Source of the DNA: Escherichia phage slur07
Strand: one strand, 5' to 3'
DNA length: 64,000 nucleotides
Sequence record: NC_028780.1
Below, one piece after another: positions 1,674-51,369 of this stretch. The notes below the pieces were generated by a model. It did not search any database. It had not been told where the DNA came from and worked only from the letters and a program-made list of their open reading frames with translations. The position numbers and the translations under genes are program-made. Within the stretch, counting starts at the first letter, position 1. Each line of letters opens with the position of its first letter.

Positions 1674-2029
1674 ATAAAGTCAAATATTCTTTTTCTGAGT
1701 CATTTTTAATTTTTGCTGTGGCGTTGGCTGCAGCTCTTGCTGGTAGTCTTATTGGATTAACGATTGACTGTATTATTTTAAACATCCGCAGTAACGTCAG
1801 CGGTATAGTAGATATAATAGAAGTTTGGAGTGAACTTCATTATACTATAGCAATTTCATTATTTTCATTCTTTGGTATTATTTTATATTTTCATTATGAT
1901 AATTTTAAAATAAATTGGCAAAGAAAAAAGGATTACAAAATACAATTAAAAGAATATAATAACTACATATCTTATATTGAAAATGAATCAATGAAAGAGT
2001 TTGTGAGTGATTGCAGGAAAATCAAATGA
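1655..2029 (+). CDS. small membrane protein (paralogue set)
   Basis: 124-aa ORF, AAGGAA RBS, TM helices, tail EFVSDCRKIK. Confidence 0.6.
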   Translation: MQKPKLNKVKYSFSESFLIFAVALAAALAGSLIGLTIDCIILNIRSNVSGIVDIIEVWSELHYTIAISLFSFFGIILYFHYDNFKINWQRKKDYKIQLKEYNNYISYIENESMKEFVSDCRKIK

Positions 2030-2510
2030 TTTTAAAAACTCGCTGGTATGATTTAGATGATGGGGACGATGGCATTTCAGTCGATAGAGTTGACTGGAGC
2101 GGCTGTTCTGAAGATACAAAGAAACGATTAATTAGGGAGTTTAGAATGGGATATCAAGCAGTTAAGCCATCTACTGTAACAGATGATAAATTCGTGTGTA
2201 TTCAAAATGGTCGTGCTAAGTTAACGAACGCTGATTGGTTCACAGATAAGAAGGTTATTCTGTGGTATATTATTAGTTTTCCTGTGACATCATTTGTATT
2301 TTGCTTCTTTGGAGAAAGTCCAGTAGGCAGAACGGAAGATTGGATTCTTTTAATTATACTTGTTAATATTTTTACAGCAGCAGTACTATCAGGAATATGG
2401 TGCGTGTTCATTGAAATGCCATGGCGTTTACGCAGACAGCAAAAGATTTATGATGAAAAGAAATATGCTCAAAATTTAAATAGCTTTATCACTGAATGCA
2501 GGAAATTAAA

Positions 2511-2514
<4 letters not shown>
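2026..2514 (+). CDS. membrane protein (paralogue set)
   Basis: ATG 2026 overlaps upstream stop (ATGA); TM segments; tail SFITECRKLK. Confidence 0.6.
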
Positions 2515-3755
<1,241 letters not shown>

Positions 3756-3756
3756 T

Positions 3757-3786
3757 GTTTACTTCCTCCAAGGACTTTGATACTAT
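3757..3786 (+). promoter_or_regulatory. T4-type early promoter
   Basis: GTTTAC 3757-3762, 18-nt spacer, TACTAT 3781-3786. Confidence 0.5.
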
Positions 3787-3813
3787 ACATTCATCAACTA
3801 CTTGGAGGAAATT

Positions 3814-4230
3814 ATGACTCGTATCAATTTAACACTTGTTTCTGAACTGACCGACCAACATCTTATGGCTGAGTATCGTGAATTGCCGCGTGTTTTTGGT
3901 ATAGTTCGTAAACATGCGGCAAATGGTAAGCGGGTTAAAGATTTTAAAATATCTTCCGAGTTTATTTTAGGCTCTGGTCATGTTACGTTCTTTTACGATA
4001 AGTTAGAATTTTTGCGAAAGCGTCAATCAGACATTATAACGGAATGCTTAAAACGTGGGTTTAGTATAAAAGATACTGAAGTTCCTGACATCAGCGATAT
4101 TCCAGCAGAATGGAAAAATGATTATAATCCATGCAAATCAGCTATTAAATTGAGTCAACAACGACTCGATGAAAAAATTTTAATGAAGCCACACTGGTAC
4201 AAGTATTACGGCAAAAATATTTACATTTAA
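3814..4230 (+). CDS. denV: endonuclease V (pyrimidine-dimer DNA glycosylase)
   Basis: 138 aa starting [12 protein letters not shown]...; matches T4 DenV length and sequence as recalled. Confidence 0.9.
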
Positions 4231-12770: not shown

Positions 12771-13292
12771 ATGTTTATTTCAAGTGAAAGTGGTTTAATT
12801 CGTGTTGAATTTAAAAATGACATCTTCCTTAGTCAAGGAGATGATATTATTAAAATGAGTTATGACGAAATCAAGAAAATTTGTCATACTCTTGAAAGCC
12901 GTGGAAAAGTAAATGCTGTTATTGACATCGGTGATTTATGGGTAACGCTTTATGAAGTATCCGAAGGATTTAACATTGAAGATGAAAATAACATTTTAGC
13001 TATTGATAAAAGAACTGATTTGTTTGATGTATTAAAAGCCTATGAACAGTCAAATGGTGGAAGAAAAGCTGCATTGATTTATCAAAAACCACATTCATGT
13101 GGAACTGCTTCAATCATTTCAAATATTGAAGGTGAAGTTGATACTTATATGTGTGTTTTAAAAGCTGGTGGTGACCGTCATCCGGATTTTATTTCTATTC
13201 GTCAAAACAATGGAGAAATTTCATTATCAAAATCAGAAGCTGAAGCTATGATTAAGTATTTAACAACCATTACGCCTTCAATGAAAGGATAA
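12771..13292 (+). CDS. hypothetical protein (paralogue pair with 12219)
   Basis: 173-aa ORF. Confidence 0.55.
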   Translation: MFISSESGLIRVEFKNDIFLSQGDDIIKMSYDEIKKICHTLESRGKVNAVIDIGDLWVTLYEVSEGFNIEDENNILAIDKRTDLFDVLKAYEQSNGGRKAALIYQKPHSCGTASIISNIEGEVDTYMCVLKAGGDRHPDFISIRQNNGEISLSKSEAEAMIKYLTTITPSMKG

Positions 13293-13294
13293 TT

Positions 13295-13756
13295 ATGATT
13301 ATTAATGAAAACTCTTGGCACTATAAATTATTCAAATTGTTTAACGATGAATGGCAACGACCTAAGACATTATGCGCATATTTTTGGTCTATTGCCATTC
13401 CTACATTTTTCGTTTCTATTTTTGGGTGTGCTATACTCGTAGGGTTAACAATTATTTGTGCAGAAAGCCTACAACGTTGGCTTATTTTCGGTAGTTTATG
13501 GACTCTTCTTCCATCGGCATTTATACTTGCACTTTTGGTTGTTTTACTTATTATCGGTTCATTTGTTATTCCTGCACATTTGCGTGAAAAATATAAAGAT
13601 TATAAATGGAAAAAGGATTATGCTTTACACGTAGAAAATATTGATAGAGCGTATAAAGGTTTACCTCCTATTCAACCCAAGAAATCGATTATCGTCGAAT
13701 TTTTAAAAGCTCGTAAAGCTAAAGTATGTCCTGTTATTGAATATAAGGCTGAATGA
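13295..13756 (+). CDS. membrane protein
   Basis: 153 aa, two to three hydrophobic helices. Confidence 0.55.
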   Translation: MIINENSWHYKLFKLFNDEWQRPKTLCAYFWSIAIPTFFVSIFGCAILVGLTIICAESLQRWLIFGSLWTLLPSAFILALLVVLLIIGSFVIPAHLREKYKDYKWKKDYALHVENIDRAYKGLPPIQPKKSIIVEFLKARKAKVCPVIEYKAE

Positions 13757-16841: not shown

Positions 16842-16866
16842 CGCTTTATACCAAGGATGGTATAAT
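16842..16866 (+). promoter_or_regulatory. MotA-dependent middle promoter-like element
   Basis: MotA-box-like CGCTTTA 16842-16848, 12-nt spacer, TATAAT 16861-16866. Confidence 0.4.
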
Positions 16867-16895
16867 GGTTCTAAGCCCTTTTAATTGAGATTATT

Positions 16896-17303
16896 ATGAA
16901 ACAGTTGATAATTAAAAGATTGAATTTATTGATATGTTGTTTATGTATAGTAATTGCATATGGTTATTACGCAATTAATGATTATATGCATTATAAAGAT
17001 TATGATGTTACTGTAGTTAATACCTTTACAGGAACTCAAGGAAAGGGGTCTAGTTTATCGTTTATTGCCGTATATGAACTAAATGACGGTTATAGATTTA
17101 GCGAATATATTTCACTGGAGATGTATTCTTCAATAGAAAAAGGTGATAATATTACTGTAAGTTTACGTCCTTTCGACGTAAAACAGACATTGTTTGATAA
17201 TATTGTTTGGTTCTTTGGAATGGTATTAGTTCAATCTGTGTGTGGTGCTTATATAGTCTGTTCCATCTTATTCTGTATATTTAGTAAAATTGAAATTGAG
17301 TGA
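16896..17303 (+). CDS. membrane protein
   Basis: 135 aa, N- and C-terminal TM helices. Confidence 0.55.
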   Translation: MKQLIIKRLNLLICCLCIVIAYGYYAINDYMHYKDYDVTVVNTFTGTQGKGSSLSFIAVYELNDGYRFSEYISLEMYSSIEKGDNITVSLRPFDVKQTLFDNIVWFFGMVLVQSVCGAYIVCSILFCIFSKIEIE

Positions 17304-17310
17304 GGAAAAT

Positions 17311-18198
17311 ATGTCAGTAGTAATTAATAATGTCAATGCAGTAATTAAATCTTTAGTTAATAAAAAATTGAATGAATGGACTGTACTTCGTCGTGGAGAG
17401 CCAGATAAATTTTTTCATAGATTTAACCCAACTTTGGATTTGAATGTTATTGACAGAGATGTTCATGCTGAAATATTAGATAAGTTTAAAGTTGATATTG
17501 GGTTTGGATTAGATAAACATTTACAACGAACAAACGGGTCTGGAATGGGTTTATCTAATCGCATCATGAAAGCCCTTAATAAAATTGGAGCGTTGTCTCG
17601 TATTAATGCGAGTGAAATCCTTCGCAATTATAATAAAGGATATGACCTTTATGGTCGACTAATGCCGAAATTATCATTCGATCAAATGATTGCGGATTTG
17701 TGGGAAAATCAACGACGATTATTAGCATTAGGCGCTCGATTAGCTAAAGGTCTAGATAAACAAATGATTTTTAAGACCAATAATACAGAAGACCTTAAAT
17801 GCTTTAAATTTAGTATTCGCGGCGATGATTATTATATCAGAGCTCGCTCTACAGATTATGTTAATATGGGGCATCATCTCTGTTTAGCTTTTGAAGTTTT
17901 AAAAGAAGCTGGAACGTTAGAATATTCATCTGGTGCTAAATGCCCGATTGGTTCAAATTGCATTTTAATTTATCGCCCGGATGAATCCAGTTTAACTAAA
18001 TTTCCTACAAAACCTGTACCAGTTCGTAGTAATGAAAAACATTCTGAGCAAATTGATTATTTTAATAAGCAAATTGAAGAGCTGAATATTTCTATTCAAC
18101 AATATGACGATGAAATTTTCAGACTATCTGGACTGAGTAGTAAAGCTAAATCTGAACGTGAAAAATTAATTAAAATTGTTGATTTACTTAAATCTTAA
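17311..18198 (+). CDS. hypothetical protein with C-terminal coiled coil (array member A)
   Basis: 295 aa from ATG 17311 (GAGGAAA RBS); C-terminal heptads. Confidence 0.55.
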   Translation: MSVVINNVNAVIKSLVNKKLNEWTVLRRGEPDKFFHRFNPTLDLNVIDRDVHAEILDKFKVDIGFGLDKHLQRTNGSGMGLSNRIMKALNKIGALSRINASEILRNYNKGYDLYGRLMPKLSFDQMIADLWENQRRLLALGARLAKGLDKQMIFKTNNTEDLKCFKFSIRGDDYYIRARSTDYVNMGHHLCLAFEVLKEAGTLEYSSGAKCPIGSNCILIYRPDESSLTKFPTKPVPVRSNEKHSEQIDYFNKQIEELNISIQQYDDEIFRLSGLSSKAKSEREKLIKIVDLLKS

Positions 18199-21900: not shown

Positions 21901-22164
21901 ATGTTTAAAGTATATGGTTATGATAGCAACATTCATAAATGTGTGTATTGCGATAATGCAAAACGTCTTTTGACCGTGAAGAAACAGCCGTTTGAATTTA
22001 TCAACATTATGCCGGAAAAAGGTGTTTTTGATGATGAGAAAATCGCTGAGCTTCTGACTAAACTAGGTCGTGATACTCAAATCGGCTTGACAATGCCCCA
22101 GGTATTTGCTCCCGATGGAAGTCATATTGGTGGATTTGACCAACTGCGAGAATATTTTAAATGA
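21901..22164 (+). CDS. nrdC: thioredoxin/glutaredoxin (T4 NrdC)
   Basis: 87 aa, active site CVYC; matches T4 thioredoxin as recalled. Confidence 0.9.
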   Translation: MFKVYGYDSNIHKCVYCDNAKRLLTVKKQPFEFINIMPEKGVFDDEKIAELLTKLGRDTQIGLTMPQVFAPDGSHIGGFDQLREYFK

Positions 22165-22376
22165 TGCTCGAAGGAACTGACTATATTCATGATTACCGCG
22201 GAAGCGCGGTATATGTAGGTGATGAAGTTGCAGTTTATTATGGGTATGGAACTTTGATGACAGCCAAGGTTATTCAAATTAAAAATAATCGTGCTAAACT
22301 CGAAGTTTATTATTCTAATGGTGAAAAGTCTATTTCTAAGTGGAAATACGGCGATTGTATGGTTAAATTGGGGTAA
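22161..22376 (+). CDS. hypothetical small protein
   Basis: 71-aa ORF, ATGA overlap. Confidence 0.5.
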   Translation: MMLEGTDYIHDYRGSAVYVGDEVAVYYGYGTLMTAKVIQIKNNRAKLEVYYSNGEKSISKWKYGDCMVKLG

Positions 22377-22378
22377 AT

Positions 22379-22549
22379 ATGATTTACGATATTAATGTAT
22401 CACGAGCTCCGTCAATGGTTACTATTCCAGCCGAAGAACTAGATCGTCTTCAGAAAATTGAAGAACTTCTTTGGGAAATTGAATGTGACCTGCCATCAGG
22501 ACTAGAATCCTGGATTGATGATGAAGAACTTAATAAATTGCGAAATTAA
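22379..22549 (+). CDS. hypothetical small protein
   Basis: 56 codons directly after upstream stop. Confidence 0.35.
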   Translation: MIYDINVSRAPSMVTIPAEELDRLQKIEELLWEIECDLPSGLESWIDDEELNKLRN

Positions 22550-23530: not shown

Positions 23531-24004
23531 ATGTTATTGACTGGCAAATTATACAAAGAAGAAAAACAGAAATTTTATGATGCACAAAACGGTAAATGCT
23601 TAATTTGCCAACGAGAACTAAATCCTGATGTTCAAGCTAATCATCTTGATCATGACCATGAATTAAATGGACCAAAAGCAGGAAAGGTACGTGGATTGCT
23701 TTGTAATCTCTGCAATGCCGCAGAAGGTCAAATGAAACATAAATTTAATCGCTCTGGTTTAAAGGGACAAGGCGTTGATTATCTTGAATGGTTAGAAAAT
23801 TTACTTACTTATTTAAAATCCGATTACACCCAAAATAATATTCACCCTAACTTTGTTGGAGATAAATCAAAGGAATTTTCTCGTTTAGGAAAAGAGGAAA
23901 TGATGGCCGAGATGCTTCAAAGAGGATTTGAATATAATGAATCTGACACCAAAACACAGTTAATAGCTTCATTTAAGAAGCAGCTTAGAAAGAGTTTAAA
24001 ATGA
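23531..24004 (+). CDS. 49: recombination endonuclease VII (Holliday junction resolvase)
   Basis: 157 aa, zinc-binding CLIC...CNLC, histidine motif DHDHE; matches T4 gp49. Confidence 0.9.
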   Translation: MLLTGKLYKEEKQKFYDAQNGKCLICQRELNPDVQANHLDHDHELNGPKAGKVRGLLCNLCNAAEGQMKHKFNRSGLKGQGVDYLEWLENLLTYLKSDYTQNNIHPNFVGDKSKEFSRLGKEEMMAEMLQRGFEYNESDTKTQLIASFKKQLRKSLK

Positions 24005-25818
24005 CAATTGAAAAAGAAATTGAAGGATTGATTCATAAAACTAATAAAGACCTTTTAAACGAGAATGCTAATAAAGATTCTCGTGTTTTTCCAACTCAAC
24101 GGGACCTTATGGCTGGTATTGTGTCTAAACACATTGCCAAAAATATGGTCCCGTCTTTTATTATGAAAGCGCATGAAAGCGGAATTATCCATTTCCACGA
24201 TATTGATTATTCCCCTGCTCTTCCATTTACTAATTGCTGTTTAGTAGATTTAAAAGGAATGCTTGAAAACGGATTTAAGCTAGGTAATGCACAGATTGAA
24301 ACTCCTAAATCAATTGGCGTTGCTACTGCAATTATGGCACAAATTACTGCACAGGTTGCTTCTCACCAATACGGCGGAACGACTTTTGCGAATGTAGATA
24401 AAGTACTTTCTCCTTATGTTAAACGCACCTATGCAAAACATATTGAGGATGCAGAAAAATGGCAAATCGCCGATGCGTTGAATTATGCTCAATCTAAAAC
24501 AGAAAAAGACGTATACGATGCATTCCAAGCTTATGAATATGAAGTAAATACTCTCTTTAGTTCAAACGGACAGACTCCTTTTGTAACAATTACATTTGGT
24601 ACGGGAACTGACTGGACTGAACGAATGATTCAGAAAGCAATTCTGAAAAATCGTATTAAAGGTCTTGGTCGTGATGGGATAACTCCTATTTTCCCTAAGC
24701 TTGTTATGTTCGTTGAAGAAGGTGTTAATCTTTATAAAGACGATCCGAACTATGATATTAAGCAGCTTGCTCTAGAGTGCGCAAGCAAAAGGATGTATCC
24801 TGATATTATTTCAGCTAAGAACAATAAAGCTATCACTGGTTCATCTGTTCCTGTTTCTCCAATGGGTTGCCGTAGTTTCTTGAGCGTATGGAAAGATTCG
24901 ACTGGTAATGAAATTCTTGATGGACGTAATAATCTTGGTGTTGTAACATTGAATCTTCCTCGCATCGCGTTAGATTCTTATATTGGAACACAGTTCAATG
25001 AACAGAAATTTGTTGAATTGTTCAATGAACGAATGGATTTGTGTTTTGAAGCTTTGATGTGTAGAATTAGTTCCTTAAAAGGAGTTAAAGCGACTGTTGC
25101 TCCTATTCTTTACCAAGAAGGTGCATTCGGGGTTCGTCTTAAACCTGATGACGACATAATTGAGTTATTTAAAAACGGTAGAAGTTCAGTGTCTTTAGGA
25201 TACATTGGTATTCACGAATTGAATATTCTTGTCGGTCGTGATATTGGACGAGAAATTTTAACTAAAATGAATGCTCATCTTAAACAGTGGACTGAAAGAA
25301 CCGGATTTGCTTTTAGTTTATATTCGACTCCTGCTGAAAACCTTTGTTATCGCTTCTGTAAACTCGATACAGAAAAATATGGAAGCGTAAAAGATGTTAC
25401 CGATAAAGGTTGGTACACTAACAGTTTCCATGTTTCAGTAGAAGAAAATATTACTCCGTTTGAAAAGATTTCCCGTGAAGCGCCATATCATTTCATTGCG
25501 ACAGGTGGTCACATTTCTTATGTTGAACTTCCTGATATGAAAAATAACTTAAAAGGTCTTGAGGCCGTGTGGGATTATGCTGCACAACATTTAGATTATT
25601 TTGGTGTTAATATGCCAGTAGATAAATGTTTTACATGCGGAAGTACCCATGAAATGACTCCTACTGAAAACGGATTTGTTTGTTCTATTTGTGGAGAAAC
25701 TGATCCTAAAAAGATGAATACCATAAGAAGAACATGTGGTTATTTGGGAAATCCGAACGAACGCGGATTTAATCTCGGTAAAAATAAAGAAATCATGCAT
25801 AGGGTTAAACACCAATGA
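24001..25818 (+). CDS. nrdD: anaerobic ribonucleoside-triphosphate reductase, uninterrupted
   Basis: 605 aa; C-terminal zinc ribbon CFTCGS...CSICG and glycyl-radical region RTCGYLG. Confidence 0.95.
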   Translation: MTIEKEIEGLIHKTNKDLLNENANKDSRVFPTQRDLMAGIVSKHIAKNMVPSFIMKAHESGIIHFHDIDYSPALPFTNCCLVDLKGMLENGFKLGNAQIETPKSIGVATAIMAQITAQVASHQYGGTTFANVDKVLSPYVKRTYAKHIEDAEKWQIADALNYAQSKTEKDVYDAFQAYEYEVNTLFSSNGQTPFVTITFGTGTDWTERMIQKAILKNRIKGLGRDGITPIFPKLVMFVEEGVNLYKDDPNYDIKQLALECASKRMYPDIISAKNNKAITGSSVPVSPMGCRSFLSVWKDSTGNEILDGRNNLGVVTLNLPRIALDSYIGTQFNEQKFVELFNERMDLCFEALMCRISSLKGVKATVAPILYQEGAFGVRLKPDDDIIELFKNGRSSVSLGYIGIHELNILVGRDIGREILTKMNAHLKQWTERTGFAFSLYSTPAENLCYRFCKLDTEKYGSVKDVTDKGWYTNSFHVSVEENITPFEKISREAPYHFIATGGHISYVELPDMKNNLKGLEAVWDYAAQHLDYFGVNMPVDKCFTCGSTHEMTPTENGFVCSICGETDPKKMNTIRRTCGYLGNPNERGFNLGKNKEIMHRVKHQ

Positions 25819-26285
25819 ATTATGATAGATTTTATCCTTGCGATTTTGTTAATGGCCCTGGTTGCAGGGTTGTTCTTTTCGTTACAGGTTGTTTGCATAA
25901 ATGCGAAGGGTGTTATAATAAATCAACATGGAATGCTAGAAATGGTATTCCATTTACTGGTGAAACACTAGAACAATTGATTGAATGTTTGAATAATGAT
26001 TATATAGAAGGATTAACTATAACCGGAGGTGACCCTCTTTATCCTGATAACAGAGACGTGATTCACTCTGTGGTTCAAACAGTAAAAAATCTTTATCCCA
26101 ATAAAAGCATTTGGTTGTGGACAGGATATAAGTTTGAAGATATTAAACAACTAGAAATGCTTAAATATGTTGATGTTATTATTGATGGGAAGTATGAGAA
26201 AAATCTTCCGACTAAAAAGCTGTGGCGAGGATCAGATAATCAGCGACTTTGGTCAAATACCGATGGGGTGTGGAAACATGATTAA
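25815..26285 (+). CDS. nrdG: anaerobic RNR activating enzyme (radical SAM)
   Basis: CLHKCEGC radical-SAM CxxxCxxC motif; 156 aa. Confidence 0.9.
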   Translation: MNYDRFYPCDFVNGPGCRVVLFVTGCLHKCEGCYNKSTWNARNGIPFTGETLEQLIECLNNDYIEGLTITGGDPLYPDNRDVIHSVVQTVKNLYPNKSIWLWTGYKFEDIKQLEMLKYVDVIIDGKYEKNLPTKKLWRGSDNQRLWSNTDGVWKHD

Positions 26286-30302: not shown

Positions 30303-30326
30303 AAACCAAAACAAAGAGGATATTAA

Positions 30327-31529
30327 ATGAAAGTATGTATTTTTATGGCTCGAGGTCTTGAAGGTTGTGGTGTAACTAAATTTTCTCTTGAGCAACGTGA
30401 TTGGTTTATTAAGAATGGTCATGAAGTAACTTTGGTTTATGCTAAAGATAAATCATTTACTCGTAATTGCGCGCATGATTATAAATCATTTTCAATTCCG
30501 GTTTTATTGGCAAAAGAATATGATAAAACACTTAAGCTGGTAAATGATTGTGATATTCTAATTATCAATTCAGTTCCTGCTACTTCGGTTGAAGAAGACA
30601 CTATTAATAACTATAAAAAAATTATTGATAACATTAAACCTTCTGTTCGTGTTGTAGTTTATCAACATGACCATTCTTCTCTTTCTTTGCGCCGAAATTT
30701 GGGATTAGAAGAAACTGTTCGTCGAGCTGATGTTATTTTTAGCCATTCTGATAATGGTGATTTTAATAAAGTTCTGATGAAAGAATGGTATCCTGAAACA
30801 GTTTCTCTGTTTGATGATATTGAAGAAGCACCGACAGTATATAACTTTCAGCCTCCTATGGATATTGCGAAGGTTCGGTCAACCTACTGGAAAGATGTTT
30901 CTGAAATTAACATGAATATCAACCGTTGGATTGGTCGTACGACTACATGGAAAGGTTTTTATCAGATGTTTGATTTTCATGAAAAACATCTTAAACCTGC
31001 AGGACTAAGTACTATTATGGAAGGTCTGGAACGTTCTCCAGCGTTCATTCCTATTAAAGAAAAAGGAATTCCATACGAGTATTATCGTCTTCATCAAGTA
31101 GACCAAATTAAAATTGCTCCTAATTTGCCAACGCAAATTCTTGACCGTTATGTAAATAGCGAAATGCTTGAACGTATGAGTAAATCCGGTTTTGGTTATC
31201 AGTTGAGTAAGTTGGATAAAAAATATCTACAACGTTCTTTAGAATATACTCATCTCGAGCTTGGTGCATGTGGAACAATTCCGGTATTTTGGAAATCTAC
31301 TGGCGAAAATTTAAAATTCCGTGTTGATAATACTCCTTTGACCTCGCATGATAGCGGTATCATTTGGTTTGATGAAAATGACATGGAATCAACATTTGAA
31401 CGTATTAAAGAACTGTCATCTGACCGAACTCTTTATGACCGCGAACGCGAAAAAGCTTATGAATTTTTGTATCAGCATCAAGATTCAAGCTTCTGCTTTA
31501 AAGAACAGTTTGACATTATTACAAAATAA
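30327..31529 (+). CDS. a-gt: DNA alpha-glucosyltransferase
   Basis: 400 aa; size and order (between 55 and 47) match T4 alpha-gt. Confidence 0.85.
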   Translation: MKVCIFMARGLEGCGVTKFSLEQRDWFIKNGHEVTLVYAKDKSFTRNCAHDYKSFSIPVLLAKEYDKTLKLVNDCDILIINSVPATSVEEDTINNYKKIIDNIKPSVRVVVYQHDHSSLSLRRNLGLEETVRRADVIFSHSDNGDFNKVLMKEWYPETVSLFDDIEEAPTVYNFQPPMDIAKVRSTYWKDVSEINMNINRWIGRTTTWKGFYQMFDFHEKHLKPAGLSTIMEGLERSPAFIPIKEKGIPYEYYRLHQVDQIKIAPNLPTQILDRYVNSEMLERMSKSGFGYQLSKLDKKYLQRSLEYTHLELGACGTIPVFWKSTGENLKFRVDNTPLTSHDSGIIWFDENDMESTFERIKELSSDRTLYDREREKAYEFLYQHQDSSFCFKEQFDIITK

Positions 31530-33172: not shown

Positions 33173-34857
33173 AGAATTTTAAACTAAATCGAGTTAGGTA
33201 TCAAAATATAATGTCAGTAGGTGGAAATCCTATTGACATTCAATTAGATAAGGTTCAAAAAACTCTTATTACTGGACGAAATGGCGGTGGTAAGTCTACT
33301 ATGCTAGAAGCCATCACATTTGGGCTTTTTGGCAAGCCATTTCGTGATGTAAAGAAAGGTCAATTAATAAACAGCACAAATAAGAAAGAACTTTTAGTTG
33401 AACTGTGGATGGAATATGATGAGAAAAAGTACTATATCAAAAGAGGACAAAAACCGAACGTTTTCGAAATCACCGTTAACGGTACACGTCTTAATGAATC
33501 TGCCAGCAGTAAAGATTTCCAAGCAGAATTTGAACAGCTTATCGGAATGTCATATGCCAGTTTCAAGCAGATTGTTGTCCTTGGTACAGCAGGGTATACC
33601 CCTTTCATGGGTTTGTCGACCCCTGCACGAAGAAAGCTTGTGGAAGACCTGCTTGAGGTAGGAACATTAGCTGAAATGGATAAGCTTAATAAAGCACTAA
33701 TACGTGAATTAAATTCACAAAACCAAGTGCTTGATGTTAAAAAAGATAGTATTATCCAACAAATTAAAATATATAATGATAACGTTGAACGCCAGAAAAA
33801 ATTAACGGGTGACAACCTTACTCGTCTGCAAAATATGTACGATGATTTGGCAAAAGAAGCTAGAACGCTAAAATCGGAAATAGAAGAAGCTAATGAAAGA
33901 TTAGTTAATATTGTTTTGGATGAAGACCCGACTGATGCATTTAATAAAATCGGTCAAGAAGCAGTTTTAATTAAATCAAAAATTGACTCATATAATAAAG
34001 TCATTAATATGTATCACGAAGGTGGATTATGTCCAACCTGTTTGTCGCAATTAAGTTCCGGTGATAAAGTTGTTTCTAAAATTAAAGATAAAGTTTCTGA
34101 ATGCACGCATTCGTTTGAACAGCTTTCAACACATCGTGATAATTTAAAAGTTCTTGTTGATGAATACCGAGATAATATTAAAACCCAACAGTCGTTGGCA
34201 AATGATATTCGCAATAAAAAGCAATCTCTAATCACGACGGTAGATAAAGCTAAAAAAGTTAAAGCGGCTATAGAAAAAGCATCTTCTGAGTTTATTGACC
34301 ATGCTGATGAAATAGCACTGCTTCAAGAAGAACTTGATAAAATTGTTAAGACAAAAACTAATTTAGTAATGGAAAAATACCACCGAGGAATTTTGACTGA
34401 TATGCTCAAAGATTCTGGTATTAAAGGTGCTATTATTAAAAAGTACATTCCATTATTTAATAAGCAGATTAACCATTATCTTAAAATAATGGAAGCGGAT
34501 TATGTGTTTACATTAGATGAAGAATTTAATGAGACAATTAAATCCCGTGGTCGTGAAGATTTTAGTTATGCTTCATTCAGTCAAGGTGAAAAAGCACGAA
34601 TTGATATTGCTCTTTTATTTACTTGGCGTGATATTGCTGAAAAAGTTTCAGGTGTTAAAATAAGTTGTTTATTTCTTGATGAAGTGTATGACGGTGCATT
34701 TGATGCTGAAGGTATTAAAAATGTAGCTAAAATTTTAGATGGTTTGAAGGATACCAACTTCTTCATAATTTCGCATAAAGACCATGACCCACAAGAATAT
34801 GGTCAGCATATTCAGATGGAAAAAGTTGGTAGATTTAGTTTAGCTAAGATTAGCTAA
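33169..34857 (+). CDS. 46: recombination ATPase subunit (Rad50/SbcC-like)
   Basis: 562 aa, GTG start; Walker A GRNGGGKST, central coiled coil with CPTC zinc hook, signature SQGE, Walker B LFLDE. Confidence 0.92.
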   Translation: MKNFKLNRVRYQNIMSVGGNPIDIQLDKVQKTLITGRNGGGKSTMLEAITFGLFGKPFRDVKKGQLINSTNKKELLVELWMEYDEKKYYIKRGQKPNVFEITVNGTRLNESASSKDFQAEFEQLIGMSYASFKQIVVLGTAGYTPFMGLSTPARRKLVEDLLEVGTLAEMDKLNKALIRELNSQNQVLDVKKDSIIQQIKIYNDNVERQKKLTGDNLTRLQNMYDDLAKEARTLKSEIEEANERLVNIVLDEDPTDAFNKIGQEAVLIKSKIDSYNKVINMYHEGGLCPTCLSQLSSGDKVVSKIKDKVSECTHSFEQLSTHRDNLKVLVDEYRDNIKTQQSLANDIRNKKQSLITTVDKAKKVKAAIEKASSEFIDHADEIALLQEELDKIVKTKTNLVMEKYHRGILTDMLKDSGIKGAIIKKYIPLFNKQINHYLKIMEADYVFTLDEEFNETIKSRGREDFSYASFSQGEKARIDIALLFTWRDIAEKVSGVKISCLFLDEVYDGAFDAEGIKNVAKILDGLKDTNFFIISHKDHDPQEYGQHIQMEKVGRFSLAKIS

Positions 34858-35566
34858 GTTTATATTTACAGTTATCATTATGCCACCTTGATAAATTTCC
34901 GAAAGTGGTAACTTTACCGCAATGGACGCAAGTACCAGTCTTTTCAGTTTTCTTGCGTCCATTTGGATTTTTCTTGCAGAAATTTCTATGCGCTGCGATA
35001 ACGCATTTCTTGCCTATCATTCCGCAGAATTCGCAGGATGTTTCTTCAAGAACGATTGCTTTAAGCCCGTTTGAGATATTATTTCTGTGTTCTTTAGACA
35101 TTGGTGGTCTAACTTTAGGATTGGGGTGATTTGGGCAGTTATCAAAATGCCAACGATTCATATTCCCGCTTAATCCAGACTTACCGCAATGAGGACAAGT
35201 TAGTCTTGCTTTATTAGCTACTGCATCAGACATTTTCTTTCGTGTCTCCTGGGAGAATTCTTTATTCTTTTCTATTTCCCAGAGTTTACGACGAATCCAA
35301 CCGAAAGTTTTATTGTTGCGTTTAGCGTATTTTGTGGAAACTGTCATCATGTTAGCAGCATAGACTAATTTTGGTTCAGAAGGATAAATTTTTACTAAAA
35401 GTTGATGAGCTACATAGTGCTCTTCTGGTGTTAAATCTACTAAGTTTGAGGCATCATCGCTGCCATTTAAACAGCGTGGTATAATGTGATGAGATTCAGT
35501 ATAGCAATCAAGTTTTCGAGATTTAGCATTAGAGATTAACTTTTCATAAATTAGTTTATAATTCAT
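34850..35566 (-). CDS. free-standing HNH homing endonuclease with three C-terminal zinc-finger repeats
   Basis: HNH motif ESHHIIPR...NLVDLTPEEHYVAH; repeats CPHCG..WHFDNC, CEFCG..HRNFC, CVHCG..WHNDNC; AAGGA RBS. Confidence 0.8.
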   Translation of the reverse strand: MNYKLIYEKLISNAKSRKLDCYTESHHIIPRCLNGSDDASNLVDLTPEEHYVAHQLLVKIYPSEPKLVYAANMMTVSTKYAKRNNKTFGWIRRKLWEIEKNKEFSQETRKKMSDAVANKARLTCPHCGKSGLSGNMNRWHFDNCPNHPNPKVRPPMSKEHRNNISNGLKAIVLEETSCEFCGMIGKKCVIAAHRNFCKKNPNGRKKTEKTGTCVHCGKVTTFGNLSRWHNDNCKYKLS

Positions 35567-42735: not shown

Positions 42736-42987
42736 ATGGAAACTTTAGTAGCAGGTTCAATTTTTATGGTTTTAGTTTCAGGCGTGTTGGCTATTATTAT
42801 ATACATGCTTCCATGGTTCATTGCCTTGATGCGTGGGTCAAAATCAACAGTAGGAATCTTTTTCACGTCTTTACTGTTTAACTGGTCAATTATTGGTTGG
42901 TTTATTACATTTATTTGGTCAATTGCGGGTGAAACCAAAAAGTCTGCACAGCCAAATCAGGTAATTATCATCAGAGAGAAGGAATGA
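42736..42987 (+). CDS. imm: superinfection-immunity membrane protein (Imm-like)
   Basis: 83 aa, two TM helices, location between 43 and 42 as in T4. Confidence 0.6.
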   Translation: METLVAGSIFMVLVSGVLAIIIYMLPWFIALMRGSKSTVGIFFTSLLFNWSIIGWFITFIWSIAGETKKSAQPNQVIIIREKE

Positions 42988-43133
42988 AAAGCAAAATTAT
43001 AGCAGCATTGCTTTTAATCTTGATGGTTATAATAAGTATATACTATAGTGTAACGGTTCCTCTTATGATTCCAACTATTATTTTAGGTTGGGGTTTATTA
43101 CTGTTACAAGTTAAATATGAATGTATCAATTGA
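42984..43133 (+). CDS. small membrane protein
   Basis: 49 codons, hydrophobic, ATGA overlap. Confidence 0.4.
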   Translation: MKSKIIAALLLILMVIISIYYSVTVPLMIPTIILGWGLLLLQVKYECIN

Positions 43134-43140
43134 GGTTTAA

Positions 43141-43881
43141 ATGATTAGTGACTCTATGACAGTTGAAGAAATCCGTCTTCATTTGGGGCTTGCATTAAAG
43201 GAAAAAGATTTCGTAGTTGATAAAACTGGCGTTAAAACTATTGAAATTATTGGCGCATCATTTGTAGCAGATGAACCGTTTATTTTTGGCGCTCTTAATG
43301 ATGAATACATTCAGCGTGAACTTGAATGGTATAAATCTAAGAGCTTGTTCGTTAAAGATATTCCGGGTGAAACACCGAAGATTTGGCAACAAGTAGCATC
43401 TTCTAAAGGTGAAATTAACTCGAATTATGGTTGGGCTATCTGGTCAGAAGATAACTATGCCCAGTATGATATGTGTTTAGCTGAACTTGGTCAAAATCCT
43501 GATTCTCGGCGCGGTATCATGATTTATACTCGTCCATCTATGCAGTTTGACTACAATAAAGATGGTATGTCAGATTTCATGTGTACGAATACAGTACAAT
43601 ACCTGATTCGTGATAAGAAAGTCAATGCAGTAGTAAGCATGCGCTCAAATGACGTGGTCTTCGGATTCCGTAATGATTATGCATGGCAAAAATACGTATT
43701 AGATAAATTAGTATCTGATTTGAATGCAGGCGATTCAACTCGTCAATATAAAGCAGGTTTTATTATATGGAATGTTGGAAGTCTTCATGTATATTCTCGT
43801 CATTTTTATTTGGTTGATCATTGGTGGAATACTGGCGAAACTCATATTGTGAAAAAAGACTATAAAGGTGAGTGGAAATGA
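43141..43881 (+). CDS. 42: dCMP hydroxymethylase
   Basis: 246 aa; thymidylate-synthase-like; size and position match T4 gp42. Confidence 0.93.
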   Translation: MISDSMTVEEIRLHLGLALKEKDFVVDKTGVKTIEIIGASFVADEPFIFGALNDEYIQRELEWYKSKSLFVKDIPGETPKIWQQVASSKGEINSNYGWAIWSEDNYAQYDMCLAELGQNPDSRRGIMIYTRPSMQFDYNKDGMSDFMCTNTVQYLIRDKKVNAVVSMRSNDVVFGFRNDYAWQKYVLDKLVSDLNAGDSTRQYKAGFIIWNVGSLHVYSRHFYLVDHWWNTGETHIVKKDYKGEWK

Positions 43882-44720
43882 TTCAATTCGTAATTCCAAG
43901 TTATCAGCGTGTAGGGGCAGTTTCTGCCCTTGATATGTTTCCGACTGATTATGAACCGCATATTGTAGTGCGTGAACACGAAGAAAAAGCTTATTATGAT
44001 GCCTATGGGTCTAGAGCTAAAATTATAACTATTCCTGATGATGTAAACGGAATTGCCGGTACTCGTAAAGCAATTACTGATATGTATGCAGGTCAACGAA
44101 TCTGGATGATTGACGATGATACTACTATTCGTATGAGTTCAATGCGAAAAAGAGATGACCGTCGTTGTGTAGATAAAGTCAATCAATTAACCCGTGAACA
44201 GTTCTATGAATTGATTCAATACGTCGAAGATGCCATGGATTGTGGGTATTATCATGGTCATGCTCGTCTACCTATTTTTAAAATTACTTCATCTTGGGGT
44301 AATTATCGTGAAAATTCATATGGATTCACGAATACATGGTATGACCTTGGAAAACTTACAACAGAACAAATTGGGTATGGAAAAATTGATTTATGCGAAG
44401 ATATGTATGCATTTCTCAATTTAATTAATCAAGGTTATCCGCATTTGGCCTTGTTCAAATATCTGGTTGTATCTGGAAAAGCACAAGCTCCTGGCGGATG
44501 TAGTTCAATTCGTAGTAATTCTAAACATAATAGAGCGCTTGAACAAATCAATAGAGAGTTTCCAGAGCAAGCTCGTTGGAAAACTTCTAATATTGAAAAA
44601 CGAAAATCGTTGGGTGAAGAAGACGAGCCATTAAAGGTTCTTCGCATGTGTGTTTCTCGTAAAGAAAAATCAGAAGCATTTCATAAGTTTAATGCTATTC
44701 ATCCAATAGCAGTTGATTAA
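43878..44720 (+). CDS. GT-A type glycosyltransferase in the T4 beta-gt position
   Basis: DxD motif IWMIDDDTTI; 280 aa; not the T4 beta-glucosyltransferase sequence as recalled. Confidence 0.65.
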   Translation: MIQFVIPSYQRVGAVSALDMFPTDYEPHIVVREHEEKAYYDAYGSRAKIITIPDDVNGIAGTRKAITDMYAGQRIWMIDDDTTIRMSSMRKRDDRRCVDKVNQLTREQFYELIQYVEDAMDCGYYHGHARLPIFKITSSWGNYRENSYGFTNTWYDLGKLTTEQIGYGKIDLCEDMYAFLNLINQGYPHLALFKYLVVSGKAQAPGGCSSIRSNSKHNRALEQINREFPEQARWKTSNIEKRKSLGEEDEPLKVLRMCVSRKEKSEAFHKFNAIHPIAVD

Positions 44721-44797
44721 TGCCTAAATTTATTGTGTTATAATTACTCTATCTTTAACCAGTGAGGAAAATATAATGATGCCTATGGAAAAAATGA

Positions 44798-45979
44798 ATG
44801 TCTATTGCAGATTTAAAATCCCGTTTGATTAAAGCTTCCACTTCTAAAATGACTGCTGAACTGACTACATCTAAATTCTTTAATGAAAAGGATGTAATCC
44901 GTACAAAAATCCCAATGCTTAATATTGCTATTTCTGGTGCGATTGATGGCGGTATGCAGTCTGGTTTAACTATTTTCGCAGGGCCTTCTAAACACTTTAA
45001 ATCAAATATGTCTTTGACTATGGTTGCGGCATATTTGAACAAATATCCTGACGCGGTTTGTCTATTCTATGATAGCGAATTTGGTATTACTCCAGCTTAT
45101 TTGCGATCCATGGGAGTTGACCCGGAACGAGTAATTCATACGCCAATTCAGTCAGTTGAACAGCTGAAAATTGATATGGTGAACCAGCTTGAAGCTATTG
45201 AGCGTGGTGAAAAGGTTATTGTATTCATCGACTCAATCGGTAATATGGCTTCTAAGAAAGAAACTGAAGATGCCTTGAATGAAAAATCTGTGGCAGATAT
45301 GACTCGTGCTAAATCACTGAAGTCATTATTCCGTATTGTTACTCCTTATTTTAGCATTAAAAATATTCCGTGCGTTGCGGTTAACCATACAATTGAAACC
45401 ATTGAAATGTTTAGTAAAACCGTGATGACAGGTGGTACAGGCGTAATGTATTCGGCTGATACTGTATTCATTATCGGTAAGCGTCAGATTAAAGATGGTT
45501 CTGATCTTCAGGGGTATCAATTTGTTCTAAATGTAGAAAAATCTCGTACCGTTAAAGAAAAAAGTAAATTCTTTATTGATGTTAAATTTGACGGTGGTAT
45601 CGATCCTTATTCTGGATTGTTAGATATGGCTCTAGAATTAGGATTTGTAGTAAAACCTAAAAATGGCTGGTATGCTCGTGAATTTCTTGACGAAGAAACC
45701 GGCGAGATGATTCGCGAAGAAAAATCTTGGCGTGCAAAAGATACCAACTGCACTACATTCTGGGGTCCTTTATTTAAGCATCAACCATTCCGAGATGCTA
45801 TTAAACGTGCTTATCAGTTAGGTGCTATTGATAGTAATGAAATTGTTGAAGCTGAAGTTGATGAATTGATTAACTCAAAGGTTGAAAAATTTAAATCTCC
45901 AGAAAGTAAAAGTAAATCAGCAGCTGATTTAGAAACTGACCTCGAACAGTTAAGTGATATGGAAGAATTTAATGAATAA
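44798..45979 (+). CDS. uvsX: RecA-like recombinase UvsX
   Basis: 393 aa; matches T4 UvsX throughout. Confidence 0.95.
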   Translation: MSIADLKSRLIKASTSKMTAELTTSKFFNEKDVIRTKIPMLNIAISGAIDGGMQSGLTIFAGPSKHFKSNMSLTMVAAYLNKYPDAVCLFYDSEFGITPAYLRSMGVDPERVIHTPIQSVEQLKIDMVNQLEAIERGEKVIVFIDSIGNMASKKETEDALNEKSVADMTRAKSLKSLFRIVTPYFSIKNIPCVAVNHTIETIEMFSKTVMTGGTGVMYSADTVFIIGKRQIKDGSDLQGYQFVLNVEKSRTVKEKSKFFIDVKFDGGIDPYSGLLDMALELGFVVKPKNGWYAREFLDEETGEMIREEKSWRAKDTNCTTFWGPLFKHQPFRDAIKRAYQLGAIDSNEIVEAEVDELINSKVEKFKSPESKSKSAADLETDLEQLSDMEEFNE

Positions 45980-46316
45980 AGATGATTTAGATTTAGATCT
46001 AGAAATTATCGATGAATCCCCCTCTTCGGAGGGGGAAGAAGAAAGAAAAGAACGTCTTTTTAATGAATCTCTTAAGATAATTAAATCTGCCATGGAAAAT
46101 GTTATCCAGGAGATTGTCATTAAACTAGAAGATGGTTCTACACATATAGTGTATGTAACTAAACTGGATTGGGTTGATGGAAAGGTTGTAATGGACTTTG
46201 CTGTTCTTGACCAAGAAAGAAAAGCTGAGTTAGCTCCTCATGTAGAAAAATGTATTACAATGCAACTGCAAGATGCATTTAATAAAAGGTCAAAGAAAAA
46301 ATTTAAATTCTTTTAA
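45972..46316 (+). CDS. 40: head vertex assembly chaperone gp40
   Basis: 114 aa from ATG 45972; position between uvsX and 41. Confidence 0.7.
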   Translation: MNKDDLDLDLEIIDESPSSEGEEERKERLFNESLKIIKSAMENVIQEIVIKLEDGSTHIVYVTKLDWVDGKVVMDFAVLDQERKAELAPHVEKCITMQLQDAFNKRSKKKFKFF

Positions 46317-46325
46317 GGAGTAAGT

Positions 46326-47753
46326 GTGGTAGAAATTATTCTTTCTCATCTCATATTTGATCAAGCTTATTTTTCAAAAGTTTGGCCATATATGGATTCA
46401 GAATATTTTGAAAGTGGTCCAGCTAAAAATACATTCAAATTAATTAAATCTCATGTTAATGAGTACCATAGCGTTCCATCTATTAATGCGTTAAATGTTG
46501 CATTAGAAAATAGTTCATTTACTGAAACAGAATATTCTGGTGTAAAAACACTTATTTCAAAACTGGCTGATTCTCCGGAAGACCACAGCTGGTTAGTAAA
46601 AGAAACAGAAAAATATGTTCAGCAAAGGGCGATGTTTAATGCTACGTCTAAAATAATCGAAATTCAAACTAATGCTGAGCTTCCTCCGGAAAAACGAAAT
46701 AAGAAAATGCCGGACGTTGGTGCTATTCCTGACATTATGCGACAAGCATTATCAATTTCATTTGATAGTTACGTTGGTCATGATTGGATGGATGACTACG
46801 AAGCACGTTGGCTATCTTATATGAATAAAGCTCGTAAGGTTCCATTTAAACTCAGAATTCTAAACAAAATTACTAAAGGCGGAGCTGAGACTGGAACACT
46901 GAACGTTTTAATGGCTGGAGTTAACGTTGGTAAGTCATTAGGATTGTGTTCATTGGCAGCAGATTATTTGCAGCTCGGACATAATGTTCTTTACATTTCC
47001 ATGGAAATGGCAGAAGAAGTCTGTGCTAAGCGTATTGATGCTAATATGCTTGATGTTTCTCTTGATGATATTGATGATGGGCATATTTCTTACGCTGAAT
47101 ATAAAGGAAAAATGGAAAAATGGCGTGAGAAATCTACCCTTGGTCGTTTAATCGTTAAGCAATATCCTACTGGTGGAGCAGACGCTAATACATTTCGATC
47201 ACTTTTAAATGAATTAAAGCTCAAGAAGAATTTTGTTCCAACAATCATTATTGTCGACTATCTAGGTATTTGTAAATCTTGCCGCATCAGAGTTTACTCA
47301 GAAAATAGTTACACAACTGTTAAAGCTATCGCAGAGGAATTGCGTGCTCTGGCTGTTGAAACCGAAACTGTTCTTTGGACTGCAGCACAGGTCGGTAAAC
47401 AAGCTTGGGACTCTTCCGATGTTAACATGAGCGATATTGCAGAATCTGCTGGTCTTCCAGCAACAGCTGATTTTATGCTTGCGGTCATTGAAACCGAGGA
47501 GCTAGCAGCTGCTGAACAACAACTCATTAAGCAAATCAAATCACGATATGGCGATAAGAATAAGTGGAATAAGTTTTTAATGGGTGTTCAAAAGGGAAAT
47601 CAGAAATGGGTAGAAATTGAACAAGATTCTACTCCAACTGAAGTGAGTGAAGTAGCAGGTTCACAACAGATTCAGGCTGAACAGAATCGCTATCAAAGAA
47701 ACGAATCAGCTCGAGCTCAGTTAGATGCTTTGGCAAATGAATTAAAATTTTAG
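46326..47753 (+). CDS. 41: replicative DNA helicase
   Basis: 475 aa, GTG start; Walker A GVNVGKS; matches T4 gp41. Confidence 0.95.
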   Translation: MVEIILSHLIFDQAYFSKVWPYMDSEYFESGPAKNTFKLIKSHVNEYHSVPSINALNVALENSSFTETEYSGVKTLISKLADSPEDHSWLVKETEKYVQQRAMFNATSKIIEIQTNAELPPEKRNKKMPDVGAIPDIMRQALSISFDSYVGHDWMDDYEARWLSYMNKARKVPFKLRILNKITKGGAETGTLNVLMAGVNVGKSLGLCSLAADYLQLGHNVLYISMEMAEEVCAKRIDANMLDVSLDDIDDGHISYAEYKGKMEKWREKSTLGRLIVKQYPTGGADANTFRSLLNELKLKKNFVPTIIIVDYLGICKSCRIRVYSENSYTTVKAIAEELRALAVETETVLWTAAQVGKQAWDSSDVNMSDIAESAGLPATADFMLAVIETEELAAAEQQLIKQIKSRYGDKNKWNKFLMGVQKGNQKWVEIEQDSTPTEVSEVAGSQQIQAEQNRYQRNESARAQLDALANELKF

Positions 47754-50173: not shown

Positions 50174-50370
50174 ATTAACCCAACTAAAGCAAATGCTAAA
50201 TCTACGAATGTATCAAGAGTAACTACTGGAATATTAATACCATGTGCAATTGCAACAGGTGATAAAATAAAGTTCCAGAGTAAAATTCCTACCATAGCAG
50301 AAATAGTAAAAGCTATACGTTTCTTATTACCTTTTATGGCATTAACAAGTGCCATTAATTTTTGTACCAT
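50170..50370 (-). CDS. antisense small membrane protein
   Basis: 66 aa, two hydrophobic helices; AGGAGG SD 4 nt before minus-strand ATG; stop overlaps gene 61 stop. Confidence 0.45.
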   Translation of the reverse strand: MVQKLMALVNAIKGNKKRIAFTISAMVGILLWNFILSPVAIAHGINIPVVTLDTFVDLAFALVGLI

Positions 50371-50383
50371 ATGTCCTCCTTAT

Positions 50384-50407
50384 TGCTTTATATATTTATT
50401 GTATAAT
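50384..50407 (+). promoter_or_regulatory. MotA-box middle promoter
   Basis: TGCTTTA 50384-50390, 11-nt spacer, TATAAT 50402-50407. Confidence 0.5.
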
Positions 50408-50441: not shown

Positions 50442-50960
50442 ATGGCTCACTTTAATGAATGTGCTCATTTGATCGAAGGTGTTGATAAAGCAAATCGTGC
50501 ATATGCTGAGTATATTATGCACAGTATTGACCCATTGCAGGTTATGCTTGACATGCAGCGGCATTTACAGATTCGTTTGGCTAATGATAAACCAGAAACA
50601 AATCGTCATCCTGATTCACTTGAAACTGCAGGAGAAGTTCTTGCTTGGCTGCGAAACCAAGACGATTATATCGCAGATGAAACTCGCGAGCTATATACTT
50701 CTCTTGGTGGTATGAGTAATGGTGAAAAAGAAGCTTCTGCCGTATGGAAACCTTGGAAGAAACGTTATTCTGAAATGCAATCCAAGAAAATTCAAGACTT
50801 ATCTCCTGAAGATCAACTTGAAATTAAATTTGAACTGATTGATCAATTTCACTTTTTCATGAATAAATTCATTGCTCTTGGAATGTCAGCTGAAGAAATA
50901 TTTAAACTTTATTATCTGAAAAATGCTGAAAACTTCGCTCGTCAAGACAGAGGCTATTAA
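50442..50960 (+). CDS. 56: dCTPase/dUTPase (dCTP pyrophosphatase)
   Basis: 172 aa starting MAHFNECAHLIEG; size and position match T4 gp56. Confidence 0.8.
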   Translation: MAHFNECAHLIEGVDKANRAYAEYIMHSIDPLQVMLDMQRHLQIRLANDKPETNRHPDSLETAGEVLAWLRNQDDYIADETRELYTSLGGMSNGEKEASAVWKPWKKRYSEMQSKKIQDLSPEDQLEIKFELIDQFHFFMNKFIALGMSAEEIFKLYYLKNAENFARQDRGY

Positions 50961-51163
50961 TGGCTCGTTTAAATAAACGTCAGCTTAAGAAAGCCCGCAA
51001 GAAACGTATTGACCAGCTATTTAAAGATTATGACAAGGAGCTCGTATGTGAGTTCTTATCTAATCAGCTTCGCAAAGCTTACACAATTAAAACTGGGCAT
51101 ATACCATTAGGCAAGTGGGTACATGAAGAAGCCTTAAAATTAATTATAGAGCATTCAAAATGA
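50960..51163 (+). CDS. basic small protein
   Basis: 67 aa, Lys/Arg-rich N-terminus. Confidence 0.45.
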   Translation: MARLNKRQLKKARKKRIDQLFKDYDKELVCEFLSNQLRKAYTIKTGHIPLGKWVHEEALKLIIEHSK

Positions 51164-51369
51164 AATTTAATTTTTATGCATGGCAAAAAGCCGGGAGACC
51201 GGCTAGTCGAGCATTTGGTTCTGATGGATATAATATTAGAGCCCATTGGAAATTTAATGCTCCAGACGATTATTCTCCGGTAATTATTAACGGCGATGTT
51301 GTTATATTAACTAAAATTGGATATTTTACCGTTCCGCGAGAATTTATTATAAATAATCATGTAATTTAA
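51160..51369 (+). CDS. hypothetical small protein
   Basis: 69-aa ORF. Confidence 0.45.
   Translation: MKFNFYAWQKAGRPASRAFGSDGYNIRAHWKFNAPDDYSPVIINGDVVILTKIGYFTVPREFIINNHVI

Follow-up and report, generated by a model that had tools for sequence, protein, structure and literature searches.

An uninterrupted nrdD gene with an empty intron insertion site in Escherichia phage slur07

The three introns of phage T4 are reportedly patchy in their distribution among the T-even phages, a pattern said to have been known since 1989-1991 from the work of Quirk et al. and the thesis of Eddy. A later survey of the distribution of the T4 introns among T-even phages is attributed to Sandegren and Sjoberg in 2004. 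In the T4 record, nrdD (sunY) is annotated as a two-piece join (43535..46385, 2851 bp) that encloses the gene for I-TevII, a GIY-YIG endonuclease of 258 aa, and RF00028 is detected in the intervening sequence with 105 bits (Rfam). The first-pass annotation of the DNA studied here had stated that T4 nrdD is split by a group I intron carrying I-TevII, and both the T4 annotation and the RF00028 match bear this out. Exon 1 of the T4 gene measures 538 nt and the intron 1033 nt. T4 has been described as an outlier in its homing-endonuclease content (PMC2988022), and the absence of I-TevII is routinely listed in genome papers (e.g., PMC5931544).

The corresponding locus of Escherichia phage slur07 was analyzed within a 64-kb window, by which we mean the whole stretch of DNA under study. 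It corresponds collinearly, but in the opposite orientation, to about 3.9-70 kb of T4, and its closest record is vB_Eco_NR1, which is 98.0% identical over 24 kb in one piece. The features discussed below are collected in Table 1.

Table 1. Features of the slur07 window discussed in the text; positions are those of the window.
Feature	Coordinates	Strand	Description
Gene 49	23531..24004	+	Endonuclease VII; Pfam Endonuclease_7, Endonuc-dimeris; stop overlaps nrdD start
nrdD	24001..25818	+	Anaerobic (class III) ribonucleoside-triphosphate reductase large subunit; one uninterrupted 605-codon ORF
Counterpart of the I-TevII recognition region (-10 to +20) of intron-deleted T4	24529..24558	+	30 bp; reported extent
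Exon 1 position -2	24537	+	A in slur07 (GAA Glu); G in 10/10 intron-bearing alleles examined
Homologue of the T4 nrdD intron insertion site	24538..24539	+	ORF nt 538|539, within codon Tyr-180 behind its first base; empty
nrdD stop/nrdG start overlap	25815..25818	+	TGA 25816-25818, ATG 25815-25817; letters CAATGA
nrdG	25815..26285	+	Radical-SAM activase of NrdD; Pfam Fer4_12 E = 7e-49, Radical_SAM; synteny with T4, T2
Free-standing HNH homing-endonuclease gene	34850..35566	-	Mob-like, 238 aa; between genes 46 and 45.2, strand opposite neighbors
TET-associated glycosyltransferase family ORF	43872..44720	+	282 aa; Pfam TAGT E = 1.2e-09; T4 has segA and beta-glucosyltransferase there

The ORF list gives slur07 nrdD an ATG start, a TGA stop and a product of 605 aa, and chance is ruled out for this frame because it comprises 605 open codons in DNA of 36% G+C. 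The Pfam domain NRDD (PF13597) covers residues 21-604 of the product and profile positions 1-562 of 562 (E = 2.1e-171), while Gly_radical (PF01228) matches residues 481-586 (E = 1.2e-25) and the glycyl-radical motif RRTCGYLG is found in the translation. The solved T4 NrdD chain (PDB 1H78/1HK8) matches residues 1-605 with 1407 bits. A full NRDD domain, a C-terminal glycyl-radical domain, an adjacent NrdG and near-identity to a characterized member thus coincide in a class III NrdD. Compared with spliced T4 nrdD, 36 of 1818 nt differ (98.0% nucleotide identity), and the sole residue change is F65 in slur07 versus V65 in T4. The reading of this gene as a single 605-codon nrdD was accordingly correct in coordinates, length and identity, as judged from the ORF list, Pfam, 1H78 and the T4 alignment. 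Needing no splicing, the gene would yield a full-length class III ribonucleotide reductase by direct translation, and the adjacent nrdG would supply the activase. The order 49-nrdD-nrdG is identical in slur07, T2 and a48, and in slur07 nrdG is followed by 55.8 and then nrdH (ORF list, Pfam). In T4 the HNH gene mobC (42906..43538) sits between nrdG and nrdD, whereas slur07 has no gene there; mobC is absent between its nrdD and nrdG, and T4 42917-43517 is unmatched anywhere in the 64-kb window.

Alignment of the slur07 ORF with the T4 gene yields two BLAST blocks that break at ORF nt 536/539. Only with a split between nt 538 and 539 does exon 1 end in U and the intron in G while the peptide AFQAYEYEVNTL is retained, and this insertion site is common to ten intron-bearing alleles. 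The comparison with T4 nrdD and the search for its insertion site that had been proposed as a check have been carried out, and they place the site between positions 24538 and 24539, where it is empty.

Is anything of the intron left, either at the site or elsewhere? At gathering thresholds Rfam reports zero families in the entire 64-kb window. As positive controls, RF00028 was reported in the T4 nrdD intron (105 bits, as above) and in an ORF-less variant intron of phage 215Ecol030PP (71 bits). At the same thresholds, however, Rfam missed the intron of phage JEP6, though it reported the ORF-less form with an identical 5' half. Since the JEP6 form was missed, Rfam by itself is incomplete as a negative test, and the absence of an intron rests mainly on gap-free alignment. 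Over its full length slur07 nrdD aligns without gaps to the single-ORF nrdD of T2 (98.2%) and a48 (98.8%), and a gap-free alignment is also obtained with the uninterrupted nrdD of Salmonella phage SG1. No group I ribozyme core is present between ORF nt 538 and 539, where the T2 alignment is continuous and RF00028 is unmatched. With T4 I-TevII or the intron endonuclease of JEP6 as query, tblastn gave no match in the 64-kb window at E <= 1e-3. An intron remnant or a displaced I-TevII gene elsewhere in the window was considered and rejected, tblastn and Rfam both being empty. Altogether, the view of this genome as a T-even relative without the mobile intron holds: slur07 is a Tequatrovirus, collinear with T4, and alignment, Rfam and tblastn agree on the lack of the intron.

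The intron is one of several T4 segments that are unmatched in the 64-kb window, the others being segF, dam, segA together with beta-gt, mobB, mobC and mobD; tblastn with segA, segF, Dam and beta-gt likewise found nothing in this window. Where T4 has mobD, slur07 has a y05I-like paralogue and a membrane-like ORF of 153 aa; mobB is missing cleanly, its flanks lying about 25 nt apart; and segF and gene 49.3 are each replaced by two small ORFs. The sites of these changes are 12771..13756, 30311..30336, 50960..51348 and 22161..22549. T4 dam (16846..17625) is without counterpart at about 50370..50402, between genes 61 and 56, where the homologous blocks on either side are only some 20 nt apart, and the slur07 gene 56 that adjoins this gap is only 73% identical to that of T4. 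The ORF that occupies the place of segA and the beta-glucosyltransferase gene suggests, by its family assignment, a T2/T6-like rather than T4-like glucosylation of hydroxymethylcytosine. The free-standing HNH gene of slur07 lies where T4 has nothing. Its product matches PHROG 655 'homing endonuclease' (E = 7.5e-69); it shares 37% identity with T4 MobC over its N-terminus and 57% with MobD over one stretch. The insertion appears to be present in vB_Eco_NR1 too, whose alignment is collinear across the gene.

The uninterrupted state of nrdD is common. Among 691 phage records with nrdD at >=90% identity to slur07, a T4-type intron at >=99% identity occurs in 25, mostly T4 isolates plus U5 and fPS-2, and a variant intron occurs in 45 at >=80% query coverage, an ORF-less derivative included. 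About 70 of ~690 Tequatrovirus-level records thus carry an intron at the nrdD site; the intronless gene is the majority state, in about 90% of close relatives, and T4 is the exception. As many as 218 phage records, including those of T2 and RB7, match a slur07 70-mer spanning the insertion site at >=99% identity, and no deposited record identical to slur07 nrdD as a whole was found. Almost certainly, then, this gene is the standard intronless nrdD allele of a T2-like Tequatrovirus that is poor in homing endonucleases. An uninterrupted nrdD is already known biology, and the observation is correct but unremarkable. Its discovery value is little and its use lies in annotation: nrdD can be entered as one intact gene with an empty site fixed to the base, slur07 can be characterized as carrying few homing-endonuclease genes, and the target-site differences described next become relevant if a natural recipient is sought for homing experiments.

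According to work ascribed to Bell-Pedersen et al. in 1990 and Loizos et al. in 1996, I-TevII reportedly recognizes about -10 to +20 around the insertion site and cuts at +15/+13. The counterpart in slur07 reads GCTTATGAAT before and ATGAAGTAAATACTCTCTTT after the insertion site, that of T4 GCTTATGAGT and ATGAAGTGAACACGTTATTC. Of these 30 positions, 23 match the site defined on intron-deleted T4 and seven differ, namely 24537, 24546, 24549, 24552, 24553, 24555 and 24558 (-2, +8, +11, +14, +15, +17 and +20 relative to the insertion site). All seven differences are synonymous and at wobble positions, and they include +14 and +15, which we take to be both overhang bases of the I-TevII cut. In this way 7 of the 36 differences between the two nrdD genes are packed into 22 nt, a clustering matched in 0 of 20,000 permutations. 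Because six outgroup genera mostly carry the slur07 states at the seven sites, we regard the T4 block as derived. The only places where a T4-type flank block occurs are next to the T4-type intron and in SG1, which has no intron. Among 50,697 records, a T4-type intron with slur07-type immediate flanks was found in none, nor was a contiguous T4-type junction in an intronless record, the best being SG1 at 95.7%. Two smaller clusters of differences from T4 lie elsewhere in the gene, with five positions at 24189..24198 (nt 189-198) and four at 25017..25023 (nt 1017-1023); since both are remote from the insertion site, nrdD contains short mosaic patches that arose independently of the intron.

The concentration of changes at the insertion and cleavage region, with both of the presumed overhang positions affected, and the confinement of the T4-type block to the neighbors of the T4-type intron and SG1 could mean that the slur07 allele is refractory to T4 I-TevII. 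The intron would then be gained at most by long co-conversion started by another endonuclease, for example MobC. Against this, all seven changes are at wobble positions, where I-TevI and other phage intron endonucleases accept many substitutions. The 2004 abstract of Sandegren and Sjoberg moreover reportedly describes homing into intronless relatives at an efficiency that varies. Non-T4 backgrounds have also acquired the T4-type intron on at least two occasions (U5 and fPS-2). In fPS-2, nrdD is 27-42% diverged from T4 over the first ~240 nt and the last ~90 nt and almost identical to it between about -300 and +180, while in U5, whose background is not that of T4, T4-like sequence extends from -68 to about +323. 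The role given to a neighboring enzyme has a precedent in the trans-homing demonstrated for mobE and the defunct I-TevIII (PMC2790892); for MobC itself, activity is listed as not determined (PMC2988022, Table 1). Weighing both sides, we hold a refractory allele to be possible but doubtful.

Two observations on these loci may be added. The locus of the Yersinia phage fPS-2 (1151..5636 of the extracted locus) is crowded with three homing-endonuclease genes: I-TevII in the intron and two free-standing ones, which occupy the 49-nrdD and nrdD-nrdG gaps and adjoin the 5' and 3' ends of its nrdD, both strongly diverged. U5 was at one point a candidate carrier of the variant intron and was rejected, its intron being T4-type and 99.7% identical; PD112, a partial match to the intron query, was rejected as well, as it carries the td intron rather than the nrdD intron.

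Position -2 deserves separate attention. It is A in T2 and a48 as in slur07, and the G found in the intron-bearing alleles pairs in helix P1 with a C of GCUCAU, the guide sequence of the intron. The predicted P1 hairpin has -7.1 kcal/mol with G at -2 and -1.8 with A, and an A at this position would, on this model, break the P1 helix of the intron unless it were co-converted. At a distance of only 2 nt from the intron, the position would normally receive the synonymous A-to-G change through co-conversion. During mixed infection with an intron-bearing phage, slur07 could gain the intron by double-strand-break repair, provided that the donor endonuclease cuts this haplotype; alternatively, a break made by a neighboring endonuclease might trigger co-conversion across the site. 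On either route the A at -2 would need to be co-converted to G for splicing. We infer from alleles in other phages that slur07 nrdD could act as a recipient. For the intron of T4 itself this role is no more than plausible: the seven target differences, the lack of records with slur07-type flanks beside a T4-type intron and the A at -2 all speak against easy uptake. Natural chimeric alleles, to which we now turn, favor the role indirectly, and the clearest case is that of the variant intron.

The variant nrdD intron measures 1045-1047 nt, is 66% identical to that of T4 and occupies the same insertion site; its endonuclease of 256 aa is 56% identical to I-TevII. In JEP6 it spans 2039..3083 of the extracted locus, and an ORF-less derivative of 479 nt is present in 215Ecol030PP (2496..2974 of the extracted locus). 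The hosts of the variant intron are Tequatrovirus and Mosigvirus phages of Escherichia, Shigella, Salmonella and Proteus, and no description of it was found in the literature searched. In two of these alleles one exon flank is of slur07 type. IME537 equals slur07 in the exon-1 flank from -49 to -1 except at -2, and JEP6 equals it in the exon-2 flank from +1 to +34; the opposite flank of each holds a donor-type block. These natural chimeras suggest that slur07-type alleles have received the variant intron. Their flanks could well reflect homing into slur07-type recipients with co-conversion tracts of varied length, and later ordinary recombination could also have produced them.

One may go further and speculate that two diverged lineages of intron and endonuclease use a single nrdD site, each matched to its own exon haplotype. 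The slur07/T2 site would then be a poor one for T4 I-TevII and the natural target of the variant enzyme, and the cluster of seven differences would record the coevolution of an endonuclease with its target, not neutral drift. We offer this scenario as speculation and consider it unlikely.

A different history would have the intron precisely lost from an ancestor that once carried it, for instance by recombination with a cDNA of the spliced transcript or with a relative that has no intron. On the accepted model, homing elements cycle through invasion, decay and loss (PMC2988022), and decayed ORF-less introns do exist, as the 479-nt form in 215Ecol030PP illustrates. Loss alleles also seem to exist, given the intronless SG1 with its intron-type flanks (GAGT and the T4-type exon-2 block); by these flanks SG1 nrdD is a candidate for precise intron loss. 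Yet slur07 is without such intron-linked flank marks, having A and not G at -2, and its exon-2 states are common to the outgroup genera and to 218 other intronless records, which makes a past loss in this lineage very improbable. That slur07 is a laboratory derivative of T4 or that its assembly dropped the intron can be dismissed: strains of T4 with deleted introns do exist and serve as recipients (PMC1865063), but divergence and gene content exclude this origin, with 2% of nrdD differing from T4, five other T4 endonuclease genes and dam missing, an HNH gene where T4 has none and vB_Eco_NR1 rather than T4 as best match, and hundreds of independent genomes have the same uninterrupted junction.

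When set beside the described systems, the standard intronless allele of slur07 compares as follows. T4 has the same gene, different in 1 aa and with the same upstream and downstream neighbors, and differs in the 1033-nt intron with I-TevII after nt 538, in mobC and in a distinct synonymous flank block (-2, +8 to +20). T2 (NC_054931) and most Tequatrovirus genomes (a48, EH2, NR1, RB7 and Sf22 among others) have a single 1818-nt nrdD ORF in the order 49-nrdD-nrdG and, like slur07, overlapping stop and start codons and no mobC. The T2-type junction is identical to that of slur07 from -36 to +34, and only scattered substitutions separate the nrdD of T2 and a48 from it. The variant alleles (JEP6, F2, IME537, G2285, SHSML-52-1 and FL44, as well as the ORF-less 215Ecol030PP) often have one exon flank equal to the slur07 haplotype, and all of them carry G at -2, unlike the A of slur07. 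SG1, finally, shares with slur07 the gene order and an uninterrupted nrdD of 1818 nt (1998..3815 of the extracted locus); it combines GAGT at the end of exon 1 with a T4-type exon-2 block and a JEP6-like exon-1 block, whereas slur07 has neither GAGT nor the T4-type exon-2 block.
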